A stretch of 64,000 nt of DNA from NCBI GenBank assembly GCA_036171595.1, contig JAVHRJ010000602.1, positions 136 to 64,135 on the forward strand, read 5' to 3'. How positions within the stretch are numbered: the first letter of the stretch is position 1; every line of letters starts with the position of its first letter. The position numbers and the translations under genes were made by a program. Below the pieces are notes generated by a model that saw only the letters and a list, made by a program, of their open reading frames with translations, did not search any database and was not told the DNA's origin. The stretch comes from Bacteroidales bacterium (GTDB taxonomy: Bacteria > Bacteroidota > Bacteroidia > Bacteroidales > GWA2-32-17). Positions 9,998-64,000 of this stretch are shown piece by piece.

Positions 9998-10228
9998 ATG
10001 CAATTAACTTTAAACATAGATTTAGCAAACAAAAATGCTTTGGCTTTATTAAATTATATAAAGACCTTAGATTTTATTAAAATTGAAGATGAAAAAACTG
10101 TACTTACCGAAGTTCAGAAATTAGCGATTAACGAAGGTATACAAGCTTTAAAATACGGAAATTCAATAGAGCATTCCAGCATGGTAGAAGAAACTAAAAA
10201 GCGATATCCAAATCTTTTTAGTGAATGA
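9998..10228 (+). CDS. Putative antitoxin of a ParE/RelE-type type II TA pair
   Basis: Small ORF whose stop overlaps the downstream toxin ATG by 4 nt (ATGA). I prefer the ATG at 9998, because the TTG at 9977 in the track lies inside the predicted -7 box (9972-9979). Confidence 0.55.
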   Translation: MQLTLNIDLANKNALALLNYIKTLDFIKIEDEKTVLTEVQKLAINEGIQALKYGNSIEHSSMVEETKKRYPNLFSE

Positions 10229-25911: not shown

Positions 25912-26730
25912 ATGAGTTTAATTACATTTATTAAAAGTCGTAAGTTTTTTGTTCATCTAAGTTTAGCTATAGGTGTAACAGTTATATTACTTACAACAAG
26001 TTTTTTTTCTATAAATTTTTACACGCATCATGGCGAAGCTGTATCTATTCCAGATTTAAGCGGTTTAACTTTTGAACAAGCTCAACGTATTGCCGAAAGT
26101 AAAGATTTTTTGGTTGAAATTTCTGACTCTGTTCATTTTCAAGATAAAGAAAAAGGCTCAGTAGTTTCGCAAGTTCCAATAGCTAATAGTAAGGTTAAAA
26201 TTGGTAGAACAATTTATTTAATTGTTAATGGCATTGAGGCAGAAAAGGTCGCTATGCCCGATTTAACTGGTATTTCGGTTAGGCAAGCAACGTCTGATGC
26301 AGAACTTTTTGGACTAAAAATAGGAAAACTTAAATATGTTCCAGATATTTCAACAACTGTACTCGACCAAAAATATAAAGGTAAACCTATTAATCCTAAT
26401 ACAATGATTGTTAAAGGTTCAACAATAGATTTAATTGTTGGAAAAGGCGAGAGTAATGAAAATACTTTTGTTCCAAATATTTTAGGTTTAAATTTTGACG
26501 ATGCAGAACAAAAACTTTCTTCGTTATCACTTAATGTTGGAGTGGCTATTTACGATAATTCAATAAAAACAAGCCGCGATTCGTTAAATGCAAAAATTTG
26601 GAAACAGCATCCAAAATCAATGTCAGATAATTCAATAAAATTAGGTAGTTATATTGATATTTGGCTTACATTAGATAAAGACTTAATTCCAGAATCTGCA
26701 ACCGAAAATAATTCAGAAAATGACTTATAA
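25912..26730 (+). CDS. PASTA-domain protein with an N-terminal transmembrane helix and three PASTA repeats
   Basis: Three ~65-aa repeats each start V/F-x-(I/M/V)-P-(D/N)-L-x-G-(L/I): VSIPDLSGLTFEQA, VAMPDLTGISVRQA and FVPNILGLNFDDA. A TAnnTTTG box lies 22 nt upstream. Confidence 0.7.
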   Translation: MSLITFIKSRKFFVHLSLAIGVTVILLTTSFFSINFYTHHGEAVSIPDLSGLTFEQAQRIAESKDFLVEISDSVHFQDKEKGSVVSQVPIANSKVKIGRTIYLIVNGIEAEKVAMPDLTGISVRQATSDAELFGLKIGKLKYVPDISTTVLDQKYKGKPINPNTMIVKGSTIDLIVGKGESNENTFVPNILGLNFDDAEQKLSSLSLNVGVAIYDNSIKTSRDSLNAKIWKQHPKSMSDNSIKLGSYIDIWLTLDKDLIPESATENNSENDL

Positions 26731-28831
26731 AATTTTAATATTAATTTTTTTAGTAAACAATTATTGTGTTTATGCTCAAGAATTTTTATTGCCATTACAA
26801 ACAAATTCTGTTATTGAGAAATATATAAAACAAAATAACTCAAAATTAAAATCAATAAATGCATCAAATGACACATTAAAAATTCCATTTTTTGATGACT
26901 TTTCTAAAGACGCTATTTATCCCGATGCTTCAAATTGGATTGATGAGCAAGTATTTATTAATAAATCTTTTGGCGATAACCCTCCGTCAATAGGTGTCGC
27001 AACTTTTGATGCATTAGATTTTGCTGGAGAACTACATTCTAATGCAGGTACTTCACTTTTTTTAAGCGATACATTAACATCAAAACCAATTAATTTGGCA
27101 AATAGAACCGATAAAAATCCAATTTCAATTTCAACAGCGTTATTATTTTATTATAATTCATCTTCTGGAAGTTATTATCCCTCCGATTCATTATTTTATC
27201 TTTCTGGAGGCTACAAAAATTGTAAAACTAATCCAACTACATATAATATAGATATGATAATTTATTACGATTCGCTTGGTTGGGTATCAAATGTTAGCGA
27301 TTATCTTTATACATACGATTCAATTTCAGGAACATACTTGCATATTGATAAATATTTATTTTTAACTTTTTCGCCCGCCGATTCACTTTATTTAAGTTTT
27401 TATTATCAACCACAAGGATTAGGAGGTCGTGAACCAGATGTTGAAGATTCCCTTGTACTTGAATTTAGAACCCCAAATAGCTCATGGAAAAATATTTGGG
27501 CAAAACCTGGTGAAGCCAATAAACCATTTAAACAAGTATTAATACCAATTGTAGATAGCTCATACTTTAAAATCGGATTTCAATTTCGTTTTAAAAATTA
27601 TTGTAAACTATATGTTTATCCAATGGCGAGTTTTGCCAGTAATATAGGATTTTGGAATATAGATTATGTTAAATTAGACAAAAACAGGAATATTTCCGAT
27701 ACAATTCATCAAGATGTTACTTTTGTTAATGATATAGATACTGTTCTAAAAGATTTTAAATCAGTCCCATGGGATCATTATAAATCTGTAAGTAATTTTC
27801 AACAACCTAAACTTAAATTTATTTACAGAAATTTATATTCAGATACTATTAATGTATTAAGAAAATATAAAATTTTCAACAAAACAGATAATACACTTGT
27901 ATTAAACAATACATTAGGTAGCGAAAATATTTATGCTTTTAATGATGATACAATATTAGTAAGAACCGATACTTCAAATTTTTTTCCATTTACATCATCT
28001 AATAAGGCAGAATTTGATTTAAAATTAATAACGTCGTCAACATCAAATGATATAAGCGATCCTTATATATGGAACGATACTTTAGTTCATCATCAAATAT
28101 TCGATAATTATTATGCATACGATGATGGAACTCCCGAAATTGGCTACGGGTTGTCGGGTCAAAGCACACAAAATAGCAAACTTGCATTTAAATTTTATAC
28201 TCTTAAACCAGACACGTTACGTGGAGTTAACATGTTTTTTAATAGAACGTTGAATGATGAGAGTCAAAATTATTTTTATTTAACTATTTGGAATAATATA
28301 AGTGGTAAACCTGGTCAAATAATTTATAGTAAAATGGGCGAAAGGCCAGAATATCATGGGTTAAACGAATTTCATTATTATAATTTAGACACAGCTATTT
28401 TTATTTCCGATACCTTTTATATAGGTTGGATTCAAACAACGCAAGATTTGCTTAACATAGGATTCGATTTGAATAATAATAATTCAGCTAAAGTTTTTTA
28501 TAATATTGATGGTAACTGGACGAATATTTCATATGCAGGAACACCAATGATGCGACCAGTTTTTAGCAATTTACCAATTAATCATGTGTCTAATAATTTT
28601 ATTAATAAGCAATTATATTTTTATCCTAATCCTGCATCCGATTTTATTACTGTTGAAAATTATAATAATTGCATTTTTCAGGTGATAGATATTACAGGAA
28701 GAATATTATTAGAAACTAAAGCTATAAATAACAAAATTGATATTTCTAAAATACCAAATGGTATTTATTTTATAAGAACTTTAGATAAATATATCCAAAA
28801 CTCAAGTAAGCTTATTATCAACAGATTATAA
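26720..28831 (+). CDS. Secreted protein with a T9SS type A C-terminal sorting domain; function unknown
   Basis: Signal peptide (NNYCVYAQ). The C-terminal ~75 aa fit the T9SS CTD pattern (LYFYPNPASDFITVEN...QVIDITGRILL...IPNGIYFIRT). It overlaps the PASTA gene by 11 nt. Confidence 0.7.
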   Translation: MTYKILILIFLVNNYCVYAQEFLLPLQTNSVIEKYIKQNNSKLKSINASNDTLKIPFFDDFSKDAIYPDASNWIDEQVFINKSFGDNPPSIGVATFDALDFAGELHSNAGTSLFLSDTLTSKPINLANRTDKNPISISTALLFYYNSSSGSYYPSDSLFYLSGGYKNCKTNPTTYNIDMIIYYDSLGWVSNVSDYLYTYDSISGTYLHIDKYLFLTFSPADSLYLSFYYQPQGLGGREPDVEDSLVLEFRTPNSSWKNIWAKPGEANKPFKQVLIPIVDSSYFKIGFQFRFKNYCKLYVYPMASFASNIGFWNIDYVKLDKNRNISDTIHQDVTFVNDIDTVLKDFKSVPWDHYKSVSNFQQPKLKFIYRNLYSDTINVLRKYKIFNKTDNTLVLNNTLGSENIYAFNDDTILVRTDTSNFFPFTSSNKAEFDLKLITSSTSNDISDPYIWNDTLVHHQIFDNYYAYDDGTPEIGYGLSGQSTQNSKLAFKFYTLKPDTLRGVNMFFNRTLNDESQNYFYLTIWNNISGKPGQIIYSKMGERPEYHGLNEFHYYNLDTAIFISDTFYIGWIQTTQDLLNIGFDLNNNNSAKVFYNIDGNWTNISYAGTPMMRPVFSNLPINHVSNNFINKQLYFYPNPASDFITVENYNNCIFQVIDITGRILLETKAINNKIDISKIPNGIYFIRTLDKYIQNSSKLIINRL

Positions 28832-35340: not shown

Positions 35341-35988
35341 ATGAGATTTTGCGGTAAAATTATTCTATTGCAAATAGTTTTATTTCTAACAACTTGTGTT
35401 TATTCGCAACCTTGTTTGAATCCGCTTACAACAAATTGTGCCGATGCAATTGCAGGAACAAGCCAATTTTTAATGTCAACATCTTCAAATGTTAACTTTG
35501 AATTTAGCGATATGCAAAAATATGTAAGCGGAATAACTAATAGCAACTCTACTCAATTAAGGTTAAAAATTGACGAAACAACTCCTGGTCAATGTAAATG
35601 GAAATTAATGATGTACATTGATAATAATGGATTTTTACCTAATAATGAGTGGGAGCCTATTATGTATTATGGAACTTCGGGAACATCTCCAGAACTCGAT
35701 TTAATACAAGTTAAAGTATATAATGGTTGTGGAACTGCCATAAATAGTGGAACGTATCAAATTTTTGCTGCAAATGTTAATTATACAATTTTAGATATTA
35801 TTAATGATCCAATTAACAGAAATATGCCAGGTACTTGCGATGGAACTCAAATTAATGGCCCTGGAAGTTATTTAACAGATTATAATGAATATAATTTTAA
35901 TATAGATTATAGAATTATACCAGGTTATTTATCAAGAACAGGAGTATATCAGATTAAAATAAATTTTTGTTTAGTAGAAGTGCCATAA
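35341..35988 (+). CDS. Secreted Cys-containing paralog of the preceding ORF, candidate minor or tip subunit (hypothetical)
   Basis: Three blocks are shared with the 34493..35275 product: TSSNVNFEFSDMQKYVSGI vs TSDQVDFVFDDIRDYYGGI; GPGSYL..EYNFNIDYRIIPG vs GGSYL..DYYFTIDYRILPG; and GVYQIKINFCLVE vs GVYTMNVKYVLLE. Confidence 0.4.
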   Translation: MRFCGKIILLQIVLFLTTCVYSQPCLNPLTTNCADAIAGTSQFLMSTSSNVNFEFSDMQKYVSGITNSNSTQLRLKIDETTPGQCKWKLMMYIDNNGFLPNNEWEPIMYYGTSGTSPELDLIQVKVYNGCGTAINSGTYQIFAANVNYTILDIINDPINRNMPGTCDGTQINGPGSYLTDYNEYNFNIDYRIIPGYLSRTGVYQIKINFCLVEVP

Positions 35989-35997
35989 ATATTATTA

Positions 35998-50638: not shown

Positions 50639-52030
50639 TTATTCTATTATTTCAGATTTTAACCTTTCAATTTGAGTTTGCTTATTAACTTCGCGTAATT
50701 TATTTCCAGTTTCGGTAAAATATTGATGTATCGATAAAAACTTTACTTGCAATTTGTTCCAATCGTTAATTGAGCCAATTAAATTTTGTTCGTGCAATTC
50801 TTTGTACAACATGTTAGAAACTGGAATAAAATCGCTTCGTCCAAGATAATCGAGATCGGCATCGCAAATAATTTTTTGTAATAGTGATTTAGGTTCTGGA
50901 GGTAATTTTGTTGCCATTATTATTTCGTTAATAGCAGTAATTTGTTCATACGAATAACCAAATCTTGGTAGTATTTCGGAAGCTATTTTAGTGCCAATTA
51001 ATTCATGTCCACTGGTTTGAATAGATTGTCCCGAATCGTGAAATAATGCTGCTGTTTTTAATAGCAACATTTCTTCGTCCGAAATACCTTCGCCTCTGCC
51101 TAAAAGTTCCGCTTGTATTCCAACATCTATTGTATGCTTAAGGTTATGATAATATAAATATTTAGGTAACTCTCGCTCTAATTTGTCAAGCATAAATTCC
51201 TCTAAATCATCATATTTAATAAGCTGAAACTTTACTTTAAATTTTTTATTTGGTATTAAGCCGTGACTGTCTTCCGAATAATTTGGAGTAAACCCTTTAA
51301 CTTGATATAAATTTACATCGCCAACGTATTTTACGGGCATTTTTCCAATATAAATACATTTAAAGTATTCAGAAACAAGTTCGCGAGTCATTTCGGATAT
51401 TATTATTTTACCTGGTTCGCTGGCCGATTCTATTCTGCTGGCAATATTTACTGTTTCGCCTTTAAGTTCGTATGATATTTTCTTTTTACCAATTTCTGTT
51501 GCTACAACTGGTCCGGTATGAATTCCCATTGAAATTTCCCATATTTTTCGATTATTGCCAAAAAGTTCGTTTTGAAATTCTTTTAACTTTTCTTGAATTT
51601 CTTTGGCAGCAAGAATCATTTCAATAGGGTTAGTTCTGTTTTTTTTTGGAATACCACCGGCACACATTAAAGTATCGCCTATAGAGCTTATTTTATTAAT
51701 ATTGTGATTTTTAATTATTTCTTCTAAGATTATAAAAAAGCGATCTAGTTCATCAATTAGCAGTTCTGCATTACTTTCTGACGATAGTTTTGAAAAGCCT
51801 TTAATATCGGCAAAAAATACTGTTACCATTTTGTAGCGTAAACTTTTTTTATCGGCCGACTCAAGAGTTACTTTTGTGTTTAGTTTTTCAATTTTTTCGC
51901 CCAATTCTCTATTTTGTTCTATTAGCTCTTTATTTCGAGTTAATAATTCGCGATTTTCTTTAACTAAGTTAGAATTTTTTTTTTCAATCTCCTGAAATTT
52001 ATTGATATAGTCGGAAATGTTATCGCTCAT
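50639..52030 (-). CDS. Class III adenylate/guanylate cyclase domain fused to an HD phosphohydrolase domain
   Basis: N-terminal coiled coil (ELLTRNKELIEQNRELGEKIEKL). Cyclase core (VTVFFADIKGFSKL, IGDTLMCAGG, GIHTGPVVA, GETVNIASRIES). C-terminal HD domain (YHNLKHTIDV, AALFHDSG, CDADLDYLG). Confidence 0.8.
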   Translation of the reverse strand: MSDNISDYINKFQEIEKKNSNLVKENRELLTRNKELIEQNRELGEKIEKLNTKVTLESADKKSLRYKMVTVFFADIKGFSKLSSESNAELLIDELDRFFIILEEIIKNHNINKISSIGDTLMCAGGIPKKNRTNPIEMILAAKEIQEKLKEFQNELFGNNRKIWEISMGIHTGPVVATEIGKKKISYELKGETVNIASRIESASEPGKIIISEMTRELVSEYFKCIYIGKMPVKYVGDVNLYQVKGFTPNYSEDSHGLIPNKKFKVKFQLIKYDDLEEFMLDKLERELPKYLYYHNLKHTIDVGIQAELLGRGEGISDEEMLLLKTAALFHDSGQSIQTSGHELIGTKIASEILPRFGYSYEQITAINEIIMATKLPPEPKSLLQKIICDADLDYLGRSDFIPVSNMLYKELHEQNLIGSINDWNKLQVKFLSIHQYFTETGNKLREVNKQTQIERLKSEIIE

Positions 52031-52139
52031 TTGTTATAATTGTAGTTACAAATTTATGAAAATAATTAATATTATAAAATTTTAACATTTATTATTTGGA
52101 ATAATTCTAAATAACGTGTATTTTTGTATAAAAAAATAT

Positions 52140-52871
52140 ATGAAAAACACTATTTTAATAATGTTAATGATAGCAGTAGTAGTATTGTCATCGTTTAATA
52201 ATATAAATTTAATAACAAATAATAATATAAAAATGAAAAACACAAAAGAAAAAAATTTGATTTATCCATATTCTTTGCCAGAACTTGGATATAGCTATGA
52301 TGCATTAGAGCCCTATATTGATAAGGCAACAATGGAAATTCATTTAACAAAACATCATGCAGCTTATGTTAATAATTTAAATAACGCAATTAAAGGAACC
52401 GAATTTGAAAAAACGCCATTAATTGAATTATTTCAAAACATAAGTAAATATCCAATAGCAGTAAGAAACAATGGAGGTGGACATTATAACCACTCACTTT
52501 TTTGGCAATGTTTATCGCCAAAAGCAGGTGTTTTACAAAACGGGAAACTATCTGTTGCAATTAATAAGGATTTTGGTTCGTTCGAAAAATTTAAAGAAGA
52601 GTTTGAAAATGCTGCAAAAACACGATTTGGTAGCGGGTGGGCATGGCTTTCGGTTGACAATAATGGAAAGTTATTTATATCTTCAACTCCAAATCAAGAT
52701 AACCCTTTAATGGACATTACAGAAAAGCGTGGAACTCCTATTTTATGTTTAGATGTTTGGGAACATGCATACTATTTAAAATATCAAAATCGTAGGCCAG
52801 ATTATGTGTCAGCTTTTTGGTCGCTTGTAAATTGGCAAGAAATTGAACGCAGATTTGAAGAGCTTTCTTAG
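52140..52871 (+). CDS. sodB: Fe/Mn superoxide dismutase with an N-terminal signal/anchor extension
   Basis: SOD core ([35 protein letters not shown]) preceded by [20 protein letters not shown] prefer the ATG at 52140 to the GTG at 52116 in the track. The metal specificity, and therefore the symbol, is uncertain. Confidence 0.8.
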
Positions 52872-52934: not shown

Positions 52935-53366
52935 TTAGTTTGAAACTTGTAACGAATTGTTTCCATCGAAATAAGTAGAGTAGGAAGTTAATGGACGTTC
53001 GGCAGGGCTTTCTTGAACAGAGCCATCAATAAAAGAAAATTTAGAGCCACAACAAGGACATTTTAAAAATAAAGTATTTACCGTATCTGGTAAAATTGCA
53101 CATCTATCTGAAGGTTTATATGTACAACAACGATCAAAAGCAACAAATTCTGATTGCGACACACGATAAATAATTATTCCACTAACTCCACCTGTAACAA
53201 AAACATTATTTCCAATGGTTTGTAATGTGCTAAATTCAGGATCACTTAAAAATATAGTGAAATTAACATAAACGTTAGGCACTAAATCATCTTTTTTACG
53301 ACAACTATCCGATAACAAAATAAAAATACTTGCAATAAAAAAAATATGTATTTTTGACAAACTCAT
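52935..53366 (-). CDS. Lipoprotein with a Rieske-like C-terminal fold but Cys-only putative ligands (hypothetical)
   Basis: Lipobox (LLSDSCRK). The layout GGVSGIIIYR..FVAFDRCCTY...LKCPCCGSKFSFIDGS..SPAERPL resembles Rieske domains. The two His ligands are not evident. Confidence 0.35.
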   Translation of the reverse strand: MSLSKIHIFFIASIFILLSDSCRKKDDLVPNVYVNFTIFLSDPEFSTLQTIGNNVFVTGGVSGIIIYRVSQSEFVAFDRCCTYKPSDRCAILPDTVNTLFLKCPCCGSKFSFIDGSVQESPAERPLTSYSTYFDGNNSLQVSN

Positions 53367-53372
53367 TGTATT

Positions 53373-53828
53373 TTGAATGTTTTTACAAAAATAAGAAATT
53401 TCTCGATAATCTCAATTTTATTAATTGCAATGGCATTGTTGTTGCCTTTTACATGCTTTTCGCAACGTGGCTCTATTGATAATGGCCAAAAAAAACAATT
53501 TCAAACTCATATTCATTTAAGAACTCTTTTTAAGAAAAACCCACAAAAAAAAGCCGAACGAAAAGCTAAAAAAGATGAAAAAAAGAAACAGAGAAATGAA
53601 ATAAAAATAGAAAAAAAATATTGGAAGCACGTTGATCATCCTAACGAAAAAGGCACAAATAAAAAGGTGGTAAAACGAATGAAAAAAAATTTAAGAATTG
53701 CCAATAGACATAATCATAATAAACATACTGAAACAAAAATAAAACGACTTTCAAGAAAAAAGATTAAATTGCCAAAAATTTCAACAACTAAAATACATTG
53801 GCCATGGAAGAAGAAACATCAAGAATAG
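53373..53828 (+). CDS. Extremely basic (Lys/Arg/His-rich) protein with an N-terminal hydrophobic segment (hypothetical)
   Basis: The ORF has a TTG start, so the true start is uncertain. After a signal-like segment the sequence is dominated by K/R/H (KKAERKAKKDEKKKQRNEIKIEKKYWKH...). It might not be a genuine gene. Confidence 0.3.
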   Translation: MNVFTKIRNFSIISILLIAMALLLPFTCFSQRGSIDNGQKKQFQTHIHLRTLFKKNPQKKAERKAKKDEKKKQRNEIKIEKKYWKHVDHPNEKGTNKKVVKRMKKNLRIANRHNHNKHTETKIKRLSRKKIKLPKISTTKIHWPWKKKHQE

Positions 53829-54199
53829 TTACATACGTAATTATTTTTATTGTAATTGCAGTTATTAATATTATTTTTAGAAAGAAAAAAGCTGCCATTG
53901 AAAAACAAAAAACTGCTACAAATGTTGAGGATAATGTTATTCCAGTTATGGACTTAAAAGAAACTATCGAAAAACATGTTGTTAAGTCAAATATTACTTC
54001 TAATAATTTAAGTTCACAAATAACTTCAAACAATAAAGTTAATAAGCATATTTCTAATAAGTTGAATAATCTTAAAGTTAGTAATTATATTGAAGAAAAT
54101 AAAGTAAAACAGAAAGAATCGAGTAATATTAATTTTACTCCCGAAGAATTAAAAAAAGCAGTAATTTATTCAGAAATTTTAAAACCACTCGATATTTAA
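53798..54199 (+). CDS. Single-pass membrane protein (hypothetical)
   Basis: Transmembrane helix (IVTYVIIFIVIAVINIIF) followed by a low-complexity N/S/K-rich tail. It overlaps the previous ORF by 31 nt. Confidence 0.3.
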   Translation: MAMEEETSRIVTYVIIFIVIAVINIIFRKKKAAIEKQKTATNVEDNVIPVMDLKETIEKHVVKSNITSNNLSSQITSNNKVNKHISNKLNNLKVSNYIEENKVKQKESSNINFTPEELKKAVIYSEILKPLDI

Positions 54200-54505
54200 T
54201 TTTCTAAACCTTACTCACGCTCGATTTCAACGAGTGTTATTTCTCTCACCTTCCACGCTCGCTTCCAGCGTGTGTGAACCTATCTAACGTTTTCTTTTAG
54301 CAAGTTTTATTTCGCTTCCAATAAGTGTTAATTTAATTAACTACTCAGCCGTTATATTATGCTACAGATTACGCTTATTTAGACGGAATTTAAACTACTA
54401 ATGGTGGTTTTCGAGAACTTAGCGAAGCGATCTCACGAACACCTTTAAAAATAATAATAATTGTGAGTAAAATTTTATAAAACAGTTGATTTAATCAAAA
54501 GAATT

Positions 54506-54526
54506 CCTCGAGGCTTTGCCTCGGGG
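54506..54526. repeat. GC-rich 9-bp-stem hairpin, copy 1 (cctcgaggc ttt gcctcgggg)
   Basis: A perfect or G-U-paired 9-bp stem followed by a T-rich run (tttacgtttttgttttttt). It is nearly identical to 54619-54639. Confidence 0.7.
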
Positions 54527-54618
54527 TTTACGTTTTTGTTTTTTTGCCACAGATTACACAGATATTCACAATATAATCTGTGTAAATTTGTGAAATCAGT
54601 GGCAACTTTTTTAAGATA

Positions 54619-54639
54619 CCTCGAGGCTCTGCCTCGGGG
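54619..54639. repeat. GC-rich 9-bp-stem hairpin, copy 2 (cctcgaggc tct gcctcgggg)
   Basis: It differs from copy 1 only in the loop. Confidence 0.7.
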
Positions 54640-54965
54640 TAGTTCATTTTAATATATGAAGCCTGTGGCAGGTTGTTGTTTGTTTATCTTCAATGATTTT
54701 CATTAATTTATTTTTTCTGTGATAATCTGTGAAATCTGTGGCAAGTATTTGTTTTATATTATTATAGACCGGGTGAGTAGTTAAAATTTAAATAGAAATT
54801 TATGTCTTTAAATAGTTACATATTAATAATATTTATTAAATAATCTCTATTTTTCATTTTGTTAGGAAATTAAAGCATATTGTTAGGAAAGTGCAGTGTA
54901 GTTTTTTCGCCTTTTACAAGTAATATTGTATCAAATTATTTACGGAAATGAAAAATTTAAAAAAA

Positions 54966-54973
54966 TAATTTTG
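54966..54973 (+). promoter_or_regulatory. Candidate -7 box for the receptor-like / CTD protein / PorV-like operon
   Basis: taattttg, 93 nt upstream of the ATG at 55067. A second match (taaatttg, 54583-54590) lies inside the inverted-repeat-bounded segment. Confidence 0.25.
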
Positions 54974-55066
54974 TTATTTTTCAAATACATTTTTATATTT
55001 ACCGACTTGTTAAAAAGTGTTAAGTTTTATAAAATAATGTATTAACGAAATAATAATCAAAAGATT

Positions 55067-58000
55067 ATGTTAAAGAAGATTTTTTTCATCTTAGCGGTTG
55101 CAATCATTTCTACGAATGTTTTTGCACAATCTGGAACTTTACAAGGTAAAGTTGTTGATGCCTCAAATGGTGAAGCAATTGCTTTTGCTAATGTAAGTGT
55201 TGAATCTAATGGTCAGGTTGTTACAGGTGGTATGACTGACTTTGATGGTAAATTTGTAATTAAACCTATACCTGCTGGAAATTACGATGTTAAAGCATCT
55301 TATGTGGGTTATCATACCTTACAATATAAAGGTTTAAAAATAATGTCTGGTAAAATTACTTTCCAAGACTTTAAAATTTCTCCTTCTTCCCAAGTTTTGA
55401 ATGAAGTAGAAGTAAAAGAATATAAAGTGCCATTAATTAGCAAAGACCAAACATCTACCGGAGGTTCTGTTACTTCCGAAGAAATAGCTAAAATGCCTGG
55501 TCGTAGTGCCGATGCTGTTGCAACAACTGTTGGTGGTGTTTACTCTGAGCGTGGTGAAGTTGGTAGCATTCGTGGTTCTCGTTCAGAAGCTACTGTTTAT
55601 TATATTGATGGAGTAAAAGTTCGTGGTTCTTCAAATATGCCAAAATCTGCTACAGGTCAAGTTGAAGTTATTACTGGTGGAATACCAGCTAAATATGGTG
55701 ATGTTACTGGTGGTATTATTAGTGTTACTACAAAAGAACCTGCACGCGAAACTTATGGTTCGGTTGAGTTAGTAACATCTAAATTATTAGATGCTTATAA
55801 TTATAATCTTGCAGAATTTACATTTACAGGTCCATTATATTCTAAAAAAACTGTTGACCCTTATGATTCAACTAAAATTAAAAAAGATGTAAAGGCTGGA
55901 TATTTTTTATCGGCAAGTTATCATTCAGAAGCCGATGGTTCACCATCATCAATTGGATGGTGGAAAGCTAATGATGGTGTAGTTGAACAAATGCTTGCTG
56001 ACCCATATCGTAGAAATGAAACAGGCTTTGGTGCGTTATTAAACACTGAATTTTTAGGTGCCGAAAACTTTAAAAAGGTAAAAGCACAAAGTGATGCTCA
56101 AAGTAAAGAAATGTCAATTTCTGGTAAAGTTGATTTTAAGCCATCGCGTAACGTAAATATAACTTTTGGTGGAACTTTTAACTATTTGAAATATAGAGAT
56201 GTAGATTATGCAAATTCATTATTTAATTCAAATAACAACGGAGAAGTAATTAACCGTACAATGCGTGGTTATGCTCGTATTACTCAAAAATTCCAATCTG
56301 ATGATGAAAAAGAAAACGCCACAGCTCTAATAAAAAATGCATTCTATCAAATTCAATTCGATTATACAAAAAACTACCAAACTGTTCAAGATCCTTATAA
56401 TAAAAATGACCTCTTTAAATATGGTTATGTTGGTAAATTTACAACTACTAAGGTTAACTCTTATGGCTGGACTGATACAGTTTCTGGCTACTCCTCTGGA
56501 GTATGGAACCATAATGGTTTTGCCGATTTATATTATGCTTTTGAACCTTCGGATATTAATCCCGACTTAGCTGCATATACTTCAGCATATTATAGTTTAT
56601 ATCCACAATTAAGTGGTTTTTATCAAAATATGGAAAACGTACAAGCTGGCAAGGGGTTGCTTAATGGAGAAAACCCTGATCCTACCTATACAACAAGTGG
56701 AACTCAATTAAATGCTGGTGGAACTTTATATAATAGTCCTGGTACTTTTTATAATGGGAACTCAAAATTAGAAAATACGCAGTATAGAGTTTCAGCTTCG
56801 GGTTCGGCCGATATTAAAGGTCATGAAATTTCTATTGGTTTCGAATTTGAACAACGTGATGACCGCTCTTTTGGAGTTAGTCCATCTTCTCTTTGGGCTT
56901 ACGGAAGACAATATACTAATAAACATATTAATGAATTAGACACAAAAAACCCTCATCCAGTGTATGATGCTAATGGAGTTTTTCAGGATACAGTTTGGTA
57001 CGATAGATTATATACAAATACTCAAACTCAGTTCGATGAAAAGTTAAGAGAAGCATTAGGAATGCAAAAAACTGGATTAAATTGGATCGATTTTGACTCT
57101 TACGATCCTTCAATTTTTTCTATTGATTTTTTTAGTGCAGATGAATTATTAAATACAGGTAGATATAGTATTGTTAGCTATTATGGTTTTGACGCACATG
57201 GTAAAAAATTAACATCAAAACCAACTTTAAACGACTTTTTAACAGCCACTGATGAAAATGGTAGAATGAAATTCGAAATACCTTCATTTCAGCCAATTTA
57301 TGGAGCTGCTTATCTTCAAGATAAATTTGCTTTTAATGATTTAGTTTTTAATGTTGGACTACGTATTGACCGTTTTGATGCAAATCAAATGGTATTAAAA
57401 GACCCATATTGTTTGTACGAGACAGTTAAAGCTAGCGAAATTCCTTCATTTTTGGGAACACGACCTGGCAATATTTCTTCAGATGCTGTAGTTTACACTG
57501 ATAATGTTGATAATCCAACTGCCATTAAAGGATATAGAGAAGGAACTTCACCTCAGGATGTTAAATGGTACGATGCTAACGGAACTCAAATTACCGACCC
57601 AAGTTTAATTGCAAGTAATGGAATTATGAACCCATATTTAGTTAAAAATGATAAGGTACTAAGAATAGGTGGTTTTAAAGATTACGAACCGCAAATTAAT
57701 GTAATGCCAAGAATAGCTTTTTCGTTTCCTATTTCCGATGTAGCCTTATTTTTTGCTCATTATGATATATTAACAAAAAGACCTACAAGTTATGGTCGAA
57801 TGAATCCTATTCAATATTATTATATTGAATCAAAAGCCGCCGACCCACTTAATAATCCTAATTTAAAAACCGAAAAAACTATTGATTATGAGTTAGGTTT
57901 TCAACAGAAATTAAACAATACTTCATCATTAAAAATTTCTGCATTTTATCGTGAAATGAGAGATAATGTTCAAGTTCAATATATGTTTGGTGCTTATCCA

Positions 58001-58738
58001 GTAAAATATATGACTTATACTAATCTTGACTTTGGTACCGTAAAAGGATTAACTATTGGGTATGATTTACGCCGCACTGGAAATGTAACATTCCGTTTAA
58101 ATTACACCTTACAATTTGCTAATGGTACAGGTTCAAATGAAACAACTAGTAAAGCACTTATTGAAACAGGGCAGCCAAATTTAAGAACAACAATTCCTTT
58201 AGACTTTGACCAACGTCATGCAATTGTAGGTAATTTAGATTATCGATTTGCTAGTGGTCGTGCTTATACCGGACCAAAAGTTGCTGGTAAAGATATATTA
58301 CAAAATACTGGTGCTAATTTTACTTTTAATTATGGAACTGGCTCGCCTTACAGTAAAAGAGATATCAATACAAATTATTTAGTTGGTTCTATAAACGGTG
58401 CTAGAAAACCTTCGCGTTTTACCATTAATTTAAGATTAGATAGAGATATTGAATTGAGTTATGGGAAAGGCGAAACAGCAGAAAATAAGAAAAAAGCTGC
58501 TTTAAATATTTATTTAGAAATAAATAATTTATTAAATAGTCAAGCAATATTAAATGTTTATAGTACAACTGGTAATGCCGATGATGATGGATTTTTAACT
58601 AATGCTAAAAATCAAGTTGATATAAGTTCTCAAAATAGTCCTGAAGCATACAGAAACTACTATACAATGTATATTAACAACCCTTATAATTATTCTTATG
58701 CAAGAACAATTCATTTGGGTTTACTATTAAGTTTTTAA
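55067..58738 (+). CDS. Large TonB-dependent-receptor-like outer membrane protein with an N-terminal CarboxypepD_reg domain and plug
   Basis: Signal peptide (STNVFAQ). Carboxypeptidase-regulatory-like domain (LQGKVVDASNGEAIAFANVSVE..TDFDGKFVIKPIPAGNYDVKASYVGYHT). Plug region (IRGSRSEATVYYIDGVKV, ITGGIPAKYGDVTGGIISVTT). Long beta-barrel region with terminal ...HLGLLLSF. No SusD-like gene follows. Confidence 0.75.
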   Translation: MLKKIFFILAVAIISTNVFAQSGTLQGKVVDASNGEAIAFANVSVESNGQVVTGGMTDFDGKFVIKPIPAGNYDVKASYVGYHTLQYKGLKIMSGKITFQDFKISPSSQVLNEVEVKEYKVPLISKDQTSTGGSVTSEEIAKMPGRSADAVATTVGGVYSERGEVGSIRGSRSEATVYYIDGVKVRGSSNMPKSATGQVEVITGGIPAKYGDVTGGIISVTTKEPARETYGSVELVTSKLLDAYNYNLAEFTFTGPLYSKKTVDPYDSTKIKKDVKAGYFLSASYHSEADGSPSSIGWWKANDGVVEQMLADPYRRNETGFGALLNTEFLGAENFKKVKAQSDAQSKEMSISGKVDFKPSRNVNITFGGTFNYLKYRDVDYANSLFNSNNNGEVINRTMRGYARITQKFQSDDEKENATALIKNAFYQIQFDYTKNYQTVQDPYNKNDLFKYGYVGKFTTTKVNSYGWTDTVSGYSSGVWNHNGFADLYYAFEPSDINPDLAAYTSAYYSLYPQLSGFYQNMENVQAGKGLLNGENPDPTYTTSGTQLNAGGTLYNSPGTFYNGNSKLENTQYRVSASGSADIKGHEISIGFEFEQRDDRSFGVSPSSLWAYGRQYTNKHINELDTKNPHPVYDANGVFQDTVWYDRLYTNTQTQFDEKLREALGMQKTGLNWIDFDSYDPSIFSIDFFSADELLNTGRYSIVSYYGFDAHGKKLTSKPTLNDFLTATDENGRMKFEIPSFQPIYGAAYLQDKFAFNDLVFNVGLRIDRFDANQMVLKDPYCLYETVKASEIPSFLGTRPGNISSDAVVYTDNVDNPTAIKGYREGTSPQDVKWYDANGTQITDPSLIASNGIMNPYLVKNDKVLRIGGFKDYEPQINVMPRIAFSFPISDVALFFAHYDILTKRPTSYGRMNPIQYYYIESKAADPLNNPNLKTEKTIDYELGFQQKLNNTSSLKISAFYREMRDNVQVQYMFGAYPVKYMTYTNLDFGTVKGLTIGYDLRRTGNVTFRLNYTLQFANGTGSNETTSKALIETGQPNLRTTIPLDFDQRHAIVGNLDYRFASGRAYTGPKVAGKDILQNTGANFTFNYGTGSPYSKRDINTNYLVGSINGARKPSRFTINLRLDRDIELSYGKGETAENKKKAALNIYLEINNLLNSQAILNVYSTTGNADDDGFLTNAKNQVDISSQNSPEAYRNYYTMYINNPYNYSYARTIHLGLLLSF

Positions 58739-58758
58739 TTTGAAAAAAATTAAATGAT

Positions 58759-61700
58759 ATGGAAACAATTAAATTAAATCGGACAATTGCAATTGTAGCT
58801 CTAACATTTTTGTTAGTACAACCTATTTTTGCTCGTAAATTAGAATCCGAAAAAAACACCAATGGTACAAGAAGCATAAATGCTGGTGGATGTGTTACTC
58901 CTTCTGCGCGTTCAGAAATGGCACTTAATAATGTAAGAGCTTTAATATTTACTGGAGGTGATATGTGGTGGGATTTGCAAACAAATGCTAAATATGAAAT
59001 TCCTAATGGGTCAGGTAAAACATCATTATTTTGTGGTGCTATTTGGATTGGTGGTACCGATGTTAACGGGCAGTTAAGAGTTGCTGGTGCAAGATATCGT
59101 TCAATTGGTACCGATTATTTTACTGGACCTCTTATCTCAAATCAGGGTACTACTACTCCCGAAGAATGTTTAAAATGGGATAAACATTTTAAAATTACTC
59201 GTAATGAGGTTGCCGAATTTCGTTCGTGGTGGCGTGCAAAACAAGCTAATAATATCGAACTGCTTAATTCACAATTTTCAAACTATAGTGGACCTCCAGC
59301 TGATATTACAAATTATCCGGGAAATAATTCAAACCCAGATTACGAACGTAATTTAGCTCCTTATTGGGACGAAAATGGAGATGGCGTATATAATCCAGAT
59401 GATGGTGATTACCCTTTTTACGATCTTGATAAAACCCAACCATGTGGTACCTCGCGTGAAAAGAGATTACCAAGGTTATATGGCGATGAAACAATGTGGT
59501 GGGTATATAATGATAGAGGAAATATTCATACCGAAACAAAAGGAAAAGAAATTGGAATGGAAATTCGCTCACAATACTTTGCTTTTGCTACCAATGATGA
59601 ACTTAACAACATGACTTTTGGTAATTATGCATTAATAAACCGTTCAACATACACTTTACAAGATTGTTACTTTGGTGTGTGGACAGATGGAGATTTGGGC
59701 GAAGCTACCGATGATTATGTTGGAACCGATGTTGCACGAGGGCTAGGATATATATATAATGCTGATGAATCTGATGGCGATGGGAATGGACATACATACG
59801 GCTCGCAACCACCTGCTGTTGGTATCGATTTTTTTGAAGGACCATATATGGATGCAAATGTTGTAAATGGAGATACTATTGATAGAGGAAATGCTTGGGA
59901 TACAGTTACTAATATTTTAAATATTAATAGTCCATATATTTATAATGGTAGTATAAATGGTTTGAATTTTGGTGATGGAGTTGTAAATAATGAGCGTTGG
60001 GGAATGAGACGCTTTATGTATCATATTAATTCTTCTGGTGTTCAAGGTGACCCTACTACTGCAGTAGAATATTATAATTATTTAATTGGAAAATGGAGAA
60101 ATGGTACACCTGCAACTTATGGTGGTACAGGTATAGGAGGAACTATTCCTTCAAACTTTATGTACCCTGATGATACTGACCCAAGTGGTTGGGGAACGGG
60201 AACCCCACAAGCAACATGGAAACAAACCGGTACTCCTTATGATTTACGTATTGTACAATCGGCAGGACCATTTACACTTACTCCTGGTATGACCAATGAT
60301 ATAACTGTAGGTATGGTTTGGGCAAGGGCAACTTCTGGTGGTGCATGGGCTTCGGTTAATGAATTAAGAAGAGCCGACGATAAAGCACAACGCTTATTCG
60401 ATGTTTGTTTTAAAATTGTTGATGGACCAAACGCTCCTGAACTAGATATTATTGAACTTGATAAAGAATTAGTATTTCATATTTTTAATACTAAAGGGTC
60501 AAATAACTATTTAAATACACCTGAAGATTATAAAGAATTAGATCCATTTATTGTTTGCCCAACAAATAATGCTAATTGCGATCAATACTTTACATTCCAA
60601 GGTTATCAAGTATTTCAATTAAAAGATGAAAGTTCATCGGTTACAGATATTGAAAATGCTGATAAAGCTAGACTCGTATTTCAATGCGATAAAAAAGATA
60701 CAATTTCTAGGATTATAAATTATGAATACGATAACCAACTAGGTGCATCGGTACCAAAATTAAAAGTTGAAGGAGCAAATTTAGGAATACAACATTCGTT
60801 TACATTAACCGAAGATGCTTTTGCAACTGGTGATAAACGTTTAGTTAACCATAAAACATATTACTATGTTGCTATTGCTTATGGATATAATAACTACAAA
60901 GCATATAATCCTGAGGATGCAACTGCTCTTGATGGTCAAAAGAAACCATATTTACCTAGCCGTAGCGGAGTTTCTGGAGCTGTAACAACATATTCAGCAA
61001 TACCACATTTTAGAGATCCTTCTAATGAAGGAACAATTTTAAACTCACAATTTGGTGATGGTCCAAAAGTCGTTCAAATTGAAGGTCATGGTAATGCTAA
61101 TAATGAGTTACATTTAACTCAAAAAACTATCGATAAAATTATGGCTGGCTATCCATGGAAGTCTGATAGTACTGAGTATGAAAATGGATATGGTCCAATT
61201 CAAATTAAAGTAATTGATCCATTACAAGTACCTTCAAAAAATTTCGGATTAAAATTTATTCCCGATTCAACCGAAGTAGGCACATCAAGTCCATTAATAA
61301 ATTATATTAAAAAATCAAAATGGATGGCATACGCAATTCCAGCTATATCATCTGATGATACTGTTAAATCTGATTCTTGGATAGGTTATTTAAATGAACA
61401 AATAATTCCTCAATGGGGTATTTCAATTACTATTCAACAAGTGCCATGGCCAATGAAAGATGATGCAGCATCATTCCAAAATGGTTATATTTCATCTTCG
61501 GTAAAATGGGCAGATCCAAATAAAATTTGGGCAACATTTATTCAAGATTTCGATGGATGTGGATTCCCAAATTGGTTAAGATGTGGTACAACTGAAGATG
61601 TAACTAATGCTTCTTGTAACGATATACAAGGTACTGGTGGAAATGCAATAGATAAAGACCAATATTATGAAAAAATAATTAATGGCACATGGGGACCTTA

Positions 61701-62937
61701 TGCTTTTTCAATGCAAGATTATTTGCAAGGACCAACTTATAATGGAGTTTCAATTCACATTAACCATACTATTGCGTCAAATGATAAAAGGTTATCCAGT
61801 GTTCATGTAGTAATTACAAAAGATAAATCAAAGTGGTCGCGTTGTCCCGTAATAGAAATGGCAGAATATGATATACCTGGTGGATTTAAACCTGGAATGA
61901 GTGAAGGTGGGCAGTATAAATTTAGTGTAAGAAAACATGCTTCGGTTGATAAAAATGGAAGTTCTACGAATATTGGCGATTCTGCAAATATTAATTCTTC
62001 AAATTATTTATATTCACAAGGAATGGGGTGGTTTCCAGGTTATGCAATTGATGTTGAAACAGGTGAAAGATTAAATATTGTGTTTGGCGAAGATTCACAT
62101 TATCCTGCTCAAAATGGAGCTGATATGATTTGGAATCCAACTAATCAATATGCATCGCCATTATGGTATCAAACAGGTGGTGCAATTGGCGACTTATATT
62201 TGGGTGGAAAGCATGTGATTTATGTTTTTGGTCATAATGGAGACACTTTAACTGCAAACGATAAAAAATATTATATGCCCGCTTACGATGAAGGTAAATG
62301 GATGTATGATAAACTAACTGCAATTACTTCTGAAACAGGAATGCAAGGGTTAAATAAAGTAAAAATTTGGAATAATGCAATGTGGGTTTCGTATCCAACT
62401 CTATCTCCAGAACTTATTATGGAAACTAACCCATCAGATCCTTATTATTTTATTAAATCAGACGTTACTTTTGATATTAGTATAGCTAATCCATATCAAA
62501 AATCTGTATATGATTTAGCTGTCGATTCAGTTAATGTTAAAAATGATAATTTACCAATGTACTATTTCTCACTTAAAGATTTAGTACCAGTTAAAAATGA
62601 TAATTTAACAGCTAAAGATGCATTAGATTTAATAAGAGTTGTACCAAATCCATATTATGGTTATAGTGGTTACGAAAAAAATCAGTTAGACTATAAGGTT
62701 AAAGTAACTAATTTACCACAAAAATGTACTATAAGTATTTATAATATTAGTGGTACATTAATTCGCCGATTTAAAAAGGATAGTGAGTTGTCATATCAAG
62801 ATTGGGATTTGAAGAACGAATATGGAATTACAATAGCTAGCGGTGTTTACATCGTGCACATTGATGCACCAGGCATTGGTGAAAAAATAGTTAAATGGTT
62901 TGGTGCTTTACGACCAATAGACTTAAATAGTTTTTAA
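58759..62937 (+). CDS. 1392-aa secreted protein of unknown function with a T9SS-type/FlgD-Ig-like C-terminal sorting domain
   Basis: Signal peptide (LLVQPIFA). Acidic Ca-binding-like stretches (WDENGDGVYNPDDGDYPFYD, NADESDGDGNGH). The C-terminal ~100 aa fit the CTD pattern (IRVVPNPYYG...CTISIYNISGTLI...WDLKNEYGITIASGVYIVHI...KWFGALR). It starts 20 nt after the receptor-like gene. Confidence 0.6.
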   Translation: METIKLNRTIAIVALTFLLVQPIFARKLESEKNTNGTRSINAGGCVTPSARSEMALNNVRALIFTGGDMWWDLQTNAKYEIPNGSGKTSLFCGAIWIGGTDVNGQLRVAGARYRSIGTDYFTGPLISNQGTTTPEECLKWDKHFKITRNEVAEFRSWWRAKQANNIELLNSQFSNYSGPPADITNYPGNNSNPDYERNLAPYWDENGDGVYNPDDGDYPFYDLDKTQPCGTSREKRLPRLYGDETMWWVYNDRGNIHTETKGKEIGMEIRSQYFAFATNDELNNMTFGNYALINRSTYTLQDCYFGVWTDGDLGEATDDYVGTDVARGLGYIYNADESDGDGNGHTYGSQPPAVGIDFFEGPYMDANVVNGDTIDRGNAWDTVTNILNINSPYIYNGSINGLNFGDGVVNNERWGMRRFMYHINSSGVQGDPTTAVEYYNYLIGKWRNGTPATYGGTGIGGTIPSNFMYPDDTDPSGWGTGTPQATWKQTGTPYDLRIVQSAGPFTLTPGMTNDITVGMVWARATSGGAWASVNELRRADDKAQRLFDVCFKIVDGPNAPELDIIELDKELVFHIFNTKGSNNYLNTPEDYKELDPFIVCPTNNANCDQYFTFQGYQVFQLKDESSSVTDIENADKARLVFQCDKKDTISRIINYEYDNQLGASVPKLKVEGANLGIQHSFTLTEDAFATGDKRLVNHKTYYYVAIAYGYNNYKAYNPEDATALDGQKKPYLPSRSGVSGAVTTYSAIPHFRDPSNEGTILNSQFGDGPKVVQIEGHGNANNELHLTQKTIDKIMAGYPWKSDSTEYENGYGPIQIKVIDPLQVPSKNFGLKFIPDSTEVGTSSPLINYIKKSKWMAYAIPAISSDDTVKSDSWIGYLNEQIIPQWGISITIQQVPWPMKDDAASFQNGYISSSVKWADPNKIWATFIQDFDGCGFPNWLRCGTTEDVTNASCNDIQGTGGNAIDKDQYYEKIINGTWGPYAFSMQDYLQGPTYNGVSIHINHTIASNDKRLSSVHVVITKDKSKWSRCPVIEMAEYDIPGGFKPGMSEGGQYKFSVRKHASVDKNGSSTNIGDSANINSSNYLYSQGMGWFPGYAIDVETGERLNIVFGEDSHYPAQNGADMIWNPTNQYASPLWYQTGGAIGDLYLGGKHVIYVFGHNGDTLTANDKKYYMPAYDEGKWMYDKLTAITSETGMQGLNKVKIWNNAMWVSYPTLSPELIMETNPSDPYYFIKSDVTFDISIANPYQKSVYDLAVDSVNVKNDNLPMYYFSLKDLVPVKNDNLTAKDALDLIRVVPNPYYGYSGYEKNQLDYKVKVTNLPQKCTISIYNISGTLIRRFKKDSELSYQDWDLKNEYGITIASGVYIVHIDAPGIGEKIVKWFGALRPIDLNSF

Positions 62938-62970
62938 AATAAAATTACTTATAACAAAATACAAAAGGAA

Positions 62971-64000
62971 ATGAAAAAAATAAGTATTTTAACAATTATA
63001 GCTGTAGCTACTTTGTTTATATCAAATTCTGGTTTTGCAGGAAACGAACAACGTGCTGGTCAGGCAGGGGCTACAGAATTACTAATTAACCCTTGGGCTC
63101 GTTGCTCGGGCTGGGGTGGGGCTAACACAAGCGGGGTTCGTGGACTCGAAGCACTTAATTTAAATGTAGCAGGTACTGCATTTACTAAAAAAACTGAGCT
63201 TATTTTTAGTCGTACAAACTGGTTGGCAGGCACTGGAATTAGTATGAATGCTTTTGGTTTATCACAAAAAGTTGGCGAAAGTGGAGTTTTAAGTCTTTCG
63301 TTAATGAGTATGAATATTGGCGATATAGAAATTACAACTGTTGATTTGCCCGAAGGTGGAATTGGTACATATAGGCCAACATTAACAAATATTTCGCTTG
63401 CTTATGCTAAAGAATTCTCAAATAGTATTTATGGAGGTTTAGTTGTGAAAATCATTAACGAAAAAACTGCAGATATTGCAGCTTCTGGAGTTTGTTTTGA
63501 TGCAGGTATTCAATATCTTACAGGATTAGGCAAAAACAAGTTAGGAAAGAAAAACCGCGATAATTTACATTTTGGAATATCAATGCGAAATGTTGGTCCA
63601 ACAATGCGATTTAAAGGCGATGGATTATCGTTTAGAGGTAACGTACCCCCAAATGATATAGTAATGACTGTTGAGCAACGCTCGGCCGATTTTGAACTAC
63701 CATCATTAATTGCAATTGGTGTAATGTACGATTTATACATTGCTCAAAAAGTTGATACCGTTGCCGATAAAATAAAAAGCGACCATAGAGTAAGTTTGGC
63801 AGGTAATTTTACTTCAAATTCATTTACAAAAGACCAGATACATGCTGGTTTAGAATATTCTTTTAAAGAAATTGTAATGATTAGAGGTGGTTATATTTAC
63901 GAAAAGGGAATTGGTAGTTATGATACTCGTACAACAGTTTTTACTGGTCCAACAGTTGGCGTGTCTGTACAGATTCCACTTAACAAAGAAAAGGGATCAA
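62971..64000 (+). CDS. PorV/PorQ-family (FadL-like) outer membrane beta-barrel protein, 3'-truncated by the window edge
   Basis: This ORF is not in the track because it has no stop inside the window. The ATG at 62971 is in an open frame to 64000. Signal peptide MKKISILTIIAVATLFISNSGFA. The mature N-terminus (AGQAGATELLINPWARCSGWGGANTSGVRGLEALNLNVAGTAF) matches the family pattern AG-AGA-x-x-L-x-I-x-x-x-AR...G-x-G-G-A. Confidence 0.65.
   Translation, partial: MKKISILTIIAVATLFISNSGFAGNEQRAGQAGATELLINPWARCSGWGGANTSGVRGLEALNLNVAGTAFTKKTELIFSRTNWLAGTGISMNAFGLSQKVGESGVLSLSLMSMNIGDIEITTVDLPEGGIGTYRPTLTNISLAYAKEFSNSIYGGLVVKIINEKTADIAASGVCFDAGIQYLTGLGKNKLGKKNRDNLHFGISMRNVGPTMRFKGDGLSFRGNVPPNDIVMTVEQRSADFELPSLIAIGVMYDLYIAQKVDTVADKIKSDHRVSLAGNFTSNSFTKDQIHAGLEYSFKEIVMIRGGYIYEKGIGSYDTRTTVFTGPTVGVSVQIPLNKEKGS

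Follow-up and report, generated by a model that had tools for sequence, protein, structure and literature searches.

A set of three adjacent genes, here called g1, g2 and g3, was investigated near the end of a 64,000-nucleotide stretch of DNA (the window) on contig JAVHRJ010000602.1 of a Bacteroidales bacterium (assembly GCA_036171595.1). The genes encode, in this order, a TonB-dependent transporter (TBDT)-type outer-membrane protein, a large secreted protein with a predicted type IX secretion system (T9SS) C-terminal domain (CTD), and an outer-membrane barrel of the PorV/PorQ family. We tentatively read the trio as a conserved outer-membrane module, in which g2 would be exported by the T9SS, keep its CTD uncleaved on its own barrel g3, and stand beside g1 as its extracellular partner. 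This reading is quite possible, and it was built on the character of the g2 CTD, the family membership of g3 and the conserved linkage of the three genes.

Three co-directional genes separated by 20 and 33 nt had been reported in the first-pass annotation of this DNA, and the open reading frame (ORF) coordinates agreed with it (Table 1). No terminator-like site was found between g1, g2 and g3 on the forward strand of the window, and all such sites lay upstream of g1. The G+C content of the window is about 30%; therefore, frames that run for 3.7 and 4.2 kb without a stop are not due to chance. Protein searches returned thousands of homologs for each of g1, g2 and g3, and the three are real genes. 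The g3 frame is open at the window edge, with 343 amino acids readable; since its full-length orthologs have 369–371 amino acids, only about 27 C-terminal residues lie outside the window.

The last 100 or so residues of g2 had been annotated as a T9SS sorting domain, and both profile and structure searches supported this. The model TIGR04183 (cutoff 23 bits) scored 22.8 bits in the full-length protein and 28.1 bits when the CTD was scanned alone. Foldseek analysis of the last ~100 residues in the AlphaFold2 (AF2) model retrieved the CTDs of PorZ (5m11), NucA (8glk_D), RemZ (8gl8_D), PorU (6za2) and RgpB (7pq4); the alignment of g2 with PorZ 5m11 covered only 123 columns. The isolated CTD also matched the C-terminus of the PorZ model (35.8 bits, positions 664–742 of 757) and that of the PorU model (17.6 bits). 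Both matches recurred in all five g2-family CTDs scanned, paralogs included, with PorZ scores of 22.6–44.3 bits, and the PorZ model was matched by 14 of 24 full-length members of the g2 family. As a control, the CTD of an ordinary T9SS cargo protein encoded at 26720..28831 gave 34.8 bits with TIGR04183 and matched neither PorZ nor PorU.

In the g2 CTD, the PNPY motif is followed by an insertion, and about 12 conserved residues (...GEKIVKWFGALRPIDLNSF) form a C-terminal extension. The pattern of this extension, ...GE[KR]x[LV]K[WF]F...R.xD..[FL], recurred not only in trio copies but also in tandem paralogs and in distant subfamilies. In 64 clean trios, the mean p-distance was 0.37 for the g2 CTD, 0.47 for residues 1–840 and 0.60 for residues 841–1290, which makes the CTD the best conserved segment of the protein. 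These comparisons showed a predicted CTD fold with PorZ/PorU-like character. Among T9SS proteins, PorZ and PorU are the two for which retention of the CTD is known, and their CTDs are bound by PorQ and PorV, respectively (PMC10202324). The earlier suggestion that g3 is a dedicated CTD receptor for g2 is thereby supported in part: the CTD is PorZ/PorU-like, differs from that of the cargo control and is the best conserved part of the protein, while the binding of g2 to g3 is proposed conditionally.

The control cargo has 703 residues, and its CTD is of the canonical type A; its gene and that of a directly preceding 272-aa PASTA-repeat protein, which it overlaps, occupy 25912–28831 on the forward strand. 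As judged from this CTD, the organism has ordinary T9SS cargo.

The barrel g3 exceeded the cutoff of the PorV/PorQ family model NF033709 (90 bits), the window copy reaching 120 bits and a full-length ortholog 144 bits; all 38 g3 orthologs matched this model at E<=0.001. For the equivalog models, the window copy scored 55.8 bits against a cutoff of 250 for PorV, 48.5 against 220 for PorQ and 40.3 against 325 for PorV2, and the full-length ortholog scored 61, 64.9 and 47.2 bits, respectively. Among the 38 orthologs, PorV scores ranged from 55 to 70 bits, and the best E values were 1.7e-20 (PorV), 1.9e-22 (PorQ) and 5.1e-15 (PorV2), all below the equivalog cutoffs; the scores on the PorQ and PorV models were about equal. 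Because the family model was passed while the PorV, PorQ and PorV2 equivalogs failed in 38/38 orthologs, g3 is assigned on profile evidence to a lineage of its own within the PorV/PorQ family. The first-pass annotation had likewise placed it in this family without canonical PorV identity.

A profile of the 38 g3 orthologs had a single match in the PDB, F. johnsoniae PorV (6h3i_F, E 5e-10); the single g3 sequence yielded nothing useful in the same database. Weak PorP/SprF matches appeared in only 6 of the 38 orthologs. Identification of g3 as a BamG/BamH-type FadL-like barrel of the Bacteroidota BAM complex was rejected on account of family and context, and "PorV2" as a name in the literature was discarded as a superscript artefact.

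In the window copy of g1, Pfam analysis revealed a CarboxypepD_reg domain (58.5 bits) and a Plug domain (PF07715; 28 bits, cutoff 23.9). Both domains were present in 33/33 g1 orthologs from related loci (best E for Plug 7e-12). The 22-strand beta-barrel model TonB_dep_Rec_b-barrel (PF00593) did not match the window copy, but it matched 15 of the 33 orthologs (best E 1e-15); the g1 orthologs of loci L002 and L003 also matched. The protein consists of a signal peptide (residues 1–20), the CarboxypepD_reg domain (24–103), the plug (131–216) and a large predicted barrel, with Phe as the last residue. A TonB-box-like motif, EVEVKEY (residues 113–119), is situated between the N-terminal domain and the plug, and at this site the 33 orthologs share the consensus "L.EVEV.EYKVPLI", a pattern-level match; by its position and pattern it is probably the TonB box.

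Searched against the PDB, the g1 ortholog profile retrieved a SusC homolog, in its N-terminal domain, as well as plug regions from Cir, PirA, PfeA and Fiu; the single sequence retrieved nothing useful. No SusC/RagA NCBIfam model matched g1 at E<=0.1, no NCBIfam T9SS model matched it, and no SusD-like neighbour was found by Pfam in the window, L002 or L003; beside g1 lie g2 and small ORFs. From the CarboxypepD_reg and Plug domains, the barrel matches of the orthologs, the plug profile and the TonB-box-like motif, g1 is classified as a TBDT-type protein, not SusC/RagA. Of the earlier description as a plug-containing giant receptor-like barrel with a CarboxypepD_reg domain and no SusD partner, everything was retained except "giant", since 1223 residues are only somewhat above the size of SusC-like transporters.

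The g2 protein begins with a Sec signal peptide (residues 1–25), a hydrophobic N-terminus ending in ..PIFA|RK that was kept across 24 homologs as inspected by eye; in the same homologs, no lipobox was seen directly after the hydrophobic region. Its core is highly conserved, and the family is large, with more than 3586 full-length matches in clusters at 90% identity and, at 50% identity, about 7031 clusters with E<=1e-3, including 1969 with E<=1e-30. A Pfam domain was found in none of the full-length matches, and NCBI names of the relatives are "hypothetical" or "T9SS type A sorting domain-containing protein". When g2 was modelled with AF2 as two halves that overlap, using an alignment of 99 sequences for each, confident and mostly beta structures resulted for residues 40–850 (predicted local distance difference test, pLDDT, 86.9; predicted template modelling score, pTM, 0.78) and residues 745–1392 (pLDDT 90.7, pTM 0.84).

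In fold searches against the PDB, only beta-sandwich portions of multidomain GH15-like, GH116 and GH94 enzymes resembled the N-terminal half, with template modelling (TM) scores of at most 0.23; residues 745–1290 gave no match. The g2 family profile found nothing useful in the PDB by sequence. A glycoside hydrolase identity was rejected, as the low-scoring matches were to beta-sandwich accessory domains and the (alpha/alpha)6 barrel was missing. Without the helical catalytic barrel, the resemblance is therefore at most to beta-sandwich accessory domains, and carbohydrate binding is weakly hinted at by the modelled structure. Profile and fold searches of g2 detected no Peptidase_C25 match in Pfam, no caspase-like fold and no PorZ beta-propeller. 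The PorU model NF033707 (cutoff 420 bits) matched the CTD region only, with 14–22 bits, and the PorZ model NF052228 (cutoff 260 bits) aligned with the g2 family only at profile positions ~650–749 of 757, at the bit scores given above for the CTDs. Thus g2 is neither PorU nor PorZ.

A locus scan with one genome per species detected at least 589 loci with g2 relatives. The best 80 of these (individual loci bear L numbers here) all came from metagenome-assembled genomes of Bacteroidota, and they span Bacteroidales, Lentimicrobium, Flavobacteriales, Salibacteraceae, Weeksellaceae and others. Among the 68 loci with enough flank, g1-g2-g3 were colinear and adjacent in 63; L008, with a split g2, is a 64th, and the remaining four carried paralogs only. 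The trio proteins were 40–88% identical to those of the window (median 47/44/54% for g1/g2/g3). An absence of such linkage in related genomes had been named in the first-pass annotation as evidence that would refute its proposal, and 64 of 68 Bacteroidota loci proved colinear. The genes around the trio are housekeeping genes; in L002, L003 and L085 the trio is followed by greA-HIT-ruvC.

In twelve loci (for example L015, L016, L020, L023, L024, L030, L035, L040 and L054), a second g2 paralog stands directly after g3. All g2 paralogs have the same special CTD. Tandem pairs of g2 paralogs also occur away from g1 and g3, at 10001–18166 in L001 and 3668–12137 in L084; the L001 pair comes after a response regulator and a Reg_prop/His_kinase sensor, with GH97 and GH172 genes close by. 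Mirror-tree analysis showed that g1 distances track those of the g2 N-terminal part (r = 0.91). With g1 controlled, the partial correlation of g3 was 0.33 with the g2 CTD and -0.11 with the g2 N-terminal part. The pattern is compatible with pairing of the g2 CTD with g3 and of the g2 N-terminal part with g1, and is suggestive only.

According to the module reading favoured here, g2 would reach the periplasm through the Sec pathway and then cross the outer membrane through the T9SS by means of its CTD. The CTD would be kept, unlike that of ordinary cargo, and bound to the dedicated barrel g3 as a surface anchor, in the manner of PorU on PorV and PorZ on PorQ. The established genetic linkage of cargo with its shuttle for type B CTDs (PMC12618676) speaks for such a dedicated barrel. 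The anchored g2 could then serve as the extracellular partner of the co-transcribed g1, capturing or processing a substrate, possibly a glycan, that g1 would import with TonB energy.

Several observations weigh against this reading. The housekeeping context, the single trio copy per locus and the conservation resemble those of core machinery, and nutrient-uptake loci are typically many and variable. Paralogs of g2 occur without g1 or g3 in L001, L084, L017, L064 and L070; a neighbouring transporter is thus not a strict requirement for g2-type proteins. No binding or catalytic domain could be recognised in the g2 body, which makes any substrate a guess. The PorZ specificity of the CTD was controlled with one ordinary CTD. 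Shared phylogeny confounds the mirror-tree correlations, which come without a significance test. CTD retention, binding of g2 to g3, cooperation of g2 with g1, and the direction and nature of transport are inferred.

The same core-like features could point to a T9SS accessory or attachment-type complex, with g1 PorF-like, g3 a PorQ-like anchor and g2 held on it like PorZ or PorU, serving secretion, attachment or envelope biogenesis and not nutrient import. PorF (PG0534) is a TBDT-like outer-membrane protein that is needed in late T9SS steps and whose partners are unknown, and the C. hutchinsonii TonB-dependent receptor CHU_1606 co-purifies with PorV (PMC8564354, PMC12704123); given these associations of TBDT-like proteins with the T9SS, the trio could be such a complex and not an importer. 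The PorZ/PorU-like CTD and the nearly equal PorQ and PorV scores of g3 would also fit it. However, the g2 body has neither the PorZ beta-propeller nor the PorU peptidase fold, g1 has the complete plug and TonB-box-like motif typical of importers, and the many g2 paralogs would be commoner among substrate-facing proteins. The plug of PG0534 itself is absent according to PMC8564354 and present according to PMC12704123. On balance, an accessory complex appears unlikely, though it deserves serious consideration.

We regard as less likely still that g3 is a shuttle only, which escorts g2-family cargo from the SprA translocon in the way that PorP/SprF proteins escort type B CTDs, after which g2 would be released or attached elsewhere and g1 would be co-transcribed without being a physical partner. 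For type B CTDs, cognate linked pairs of shuttle and cargo are on record (PMC12618676, PMC9143113), and the sharing of one special CTD by all g2 paralogs, with a single g3 per locus, agrees with such a role. But the linkage of g1 to g2 is as tight as that of g3 to g2, g1 distances co-vary most with the g2 N-terminal part, and the CTD extension is conserved beyond the apparent need of a transient signal. A standard porU-porV pair beside an unrelated receptor, the outcome that the first-pass annotation had set against its own proposal, is hardly tenable. It would draw on the PorU-like size and CTD of g2, on the family of g3 and on the adjacency of porU and porV that is common in Bacteroidota; it was refuted by the model cutoffs and the fold search, as g2 lacks the C25 body and the caspase-like fold and meets the PorU model in its CTD alone, and all 38 g3 orthologs stay far below the PorV cutoff.

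Comparison with known systems brought out both shared and distinct features of the proposed module. PorZ-PorQ and PorU-PorV of P. gingivalis resemble it in that a T9SS protein keeps its CTD on a 14-strand barrel of the PorV/PorQ family (PMC10202324), and the g2 CTD fits the CTD regions of PorZ and PorU better than the generic CTD model (35.8 bits with PorZ, 28.1 bits with TIGR04183). However, the g2 body is unrelated to the PorZ beta-propellers or the C25-like peptidase of PorU, g3 is below the equivalog cutoffs, g2 and g3 are apparently co-transcribed with a TBDT, and retention of the g2 CTD is hypothetical. The pairing of type B CTD cargo with a PorP/SprF-like shuttle or anchor (SprB-SprF) is similar in linking a T9SS substrate to its own barrel, and for type B cargo the cognate adjacent barrel determines secretion and final localisation (PMC12618676, PMC9143113). 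It differs from the trio, where a type A-like CTD (TIGR04183, PorZ-like) goes with a barrel of the PorV/PorQ family, g3, and a transporter gene is included.

SusC/SusD and BtuB-BtuG share with the trio a TBDT with a CarboxypepD_reg-type N-terminal domain and a co-encoded surface partner (PMC12578637). In contrast, the trio has no SusD and no SusC/RagA signature, and its large partner g2 is a putative T9SS substrate, not a lipoprotein, which would be anchored via a separate barrel. Polysaccharide utilisation loci are variable, whereas the trio locus is single-copy and conserved across orders. PorF and CHU_1606 resemble g1 as TBDT-type proteins associated with PorV-type proteins or late T9SS steps (PMC8564354, PMC12704123). 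PorF, compared by description only, is about 91 kDa, whereas g1 has 1223 residues with an extra N-terminal domain, and PorF is not reported beside a PorV-like or g2-like gene.

In a full-text literature search, neither the trio nor a PorV-family barrel encoded together with a TBDT was found described. The TBDT, the T9SS CTD substrate and the PorV/PorQ family are known kinds; what is new is their conserved combination, together with g3 as a distinct lineage and g2 as a fold family without annotation. According to the current T9SS literature, PorV handles all type A CTDs, with dedicated barrels only for PorU, PorZ and type B cargo. If the module reading is right, the trio would add a third pair of a CTD protein and a PorV-family barrel, coupled to a transporter, and would extend the principle that a cognate barrel protects and anchors the CTD. 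A TBDT would gain a surface partner independent of lipoprotein export, the T9SS association of TBDT-like proteins such as PorF would acquire a genomic handle, and the g2 family, with ~7,000 clusters at 50% identity, would receive a checkable context.

In a bolder form, which we consider doubtful, g1-g2-g3, possibly with the Rieske-fold lipoprotein described below, would form a T9SS-dependent machine of the outer membrane, widely conserved yet unrecognised. Such a machine would join a retained-CTD protein on its own PorV-family barrel, as a third class, with a TonB-energised barrel, would serve Bacteroidota of environmental, rumen and sediment habitats in a core function of the envelope or of acquisition, and would make g2 a new fold family of several thousand clusters.

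Table 1. Coordinates of the trio and associated features in the window
Feature	Position	Strand	Basis
g1, TBDT-type outer-membrane protein, 1223 aa	55067..58738	+	Pfam and ortholog profile
TonB-box-like motif EVEVKEY, g1 aa 113-119	55403..55423	+	Translation, between N-terminal domain and plug
g2, secreted mostly-beta multidomain protein, 1392 aa	58759..62937	+	Family search, AF2, fold search
Atypical T9SS type-A CTD of g2, aa ~1291-1392 (predicted)	62629..62934	+	Foldseek, hidden Markov model
g3, PorV/PorQ-family outer-membrane barrel, 343 of about 370 aa inside the window	62971..64000 (open at the edge)	+	NF033709
Candidate fourth component, 143-aa Rieske-fold lipoprotein	52935..53366	- (divergent from g1)	Pfam, PDB, synteny
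Long AT-rich leader/divergent promoter region with repeated hairpins	54200..55066 (~870 nt)	+	Sequence

A conserved neighbour of the trio had been missed by the first-pass annotation. The Rieske-fold lipoprotein scored 26.3 bits with Pfam Rieske, and its best PDB match was the cytochrome b6f Rieske protein (E 5e-4), in which CPCCGS of the lipoprotein aligned to CPCHGA; the His residues that bind the 2Fe-2S cluster are not conserved, CPCCGS standing in place of CPCHGS. In at least 41 of 67 loci, its gene lies upstream of g1 in divergent orientation; this number is a minimum, as the DNA covered before g1 was limited to about 2.2 kb. In the orthologs (L002-L083) the lipobox Cys is invariant and is followed by a K/D/E-rich stretch, RKKDD in the window copy. 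This stretch resembles what we take to be the export signal of Bacteroidota surface lipoproteins. A surface lipoprotein gene adjoining a TBDT gene is the usual arrangement in Bacteroidota (PMC12578637), and therefore the Rieske-fold lipoprotein is a candidate partner of g1. Synteny alone suggests the functional link, and as a surface lipoprotein it may be a further partner of g1 in the proposed module.

The leader upstream of g1 contains the hairpin CCTCGAGGC-TTT-GCCTCGGGG in two copies (54506–54526 and 54617–54641), which is G+C-rich and terminator-like. A 35-nt direct repeat is located at 54577 and 54716, with an inverted copy at 54544–54570. A regulatory structure is one possible explanation of these hairpins and repeats, a small repeat element another. 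An Rfam scan of the leader returned no family above threshold, and thus no riboswitch that might reveal the substrate. Between the Rieske-like gene and g1, two overlapping Lys-rich ORFs are present on the forward strand, 53373–53828 (151 aa), the start of which resembles a signal peptide, and 53798–54199 (133 aa). They were rejected as members of the module, being kept only in L004, L002 and, weakly, L003; since they occur only in the closest relatives, they are doubtful or lineage-specific genes.

Other genes of the window were recorded as well. On the reverse strand, a 1412-aa protein (14713–18951) consists of a C-terminal alpha-glucan/maltodextrin phosphorylase of ~830 residues fused to an N-terminal part of ~570 residues with weak glycosyltransferase-like matches. 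An HD domain and an adenylate/guanylate cyclase catalytic domain occur together in a 463-aa protein (50639–52030, reverse strand), and the adjoining gene (52116–52871) encodes an Fe/Mn superoxide dismutase that is extended at its N-terminus. At 35341–38976 on the forward strand, a 992-aa protein without an NCBIfam match comes after a 215-aa ORF. In L001 (434–4206), a 992-aa protein with weak BNR/Sortilin matches comes after a LolA-like TP_0789 protein, and from the equal length of 992 residues the two loci may contain the same conserved pair.

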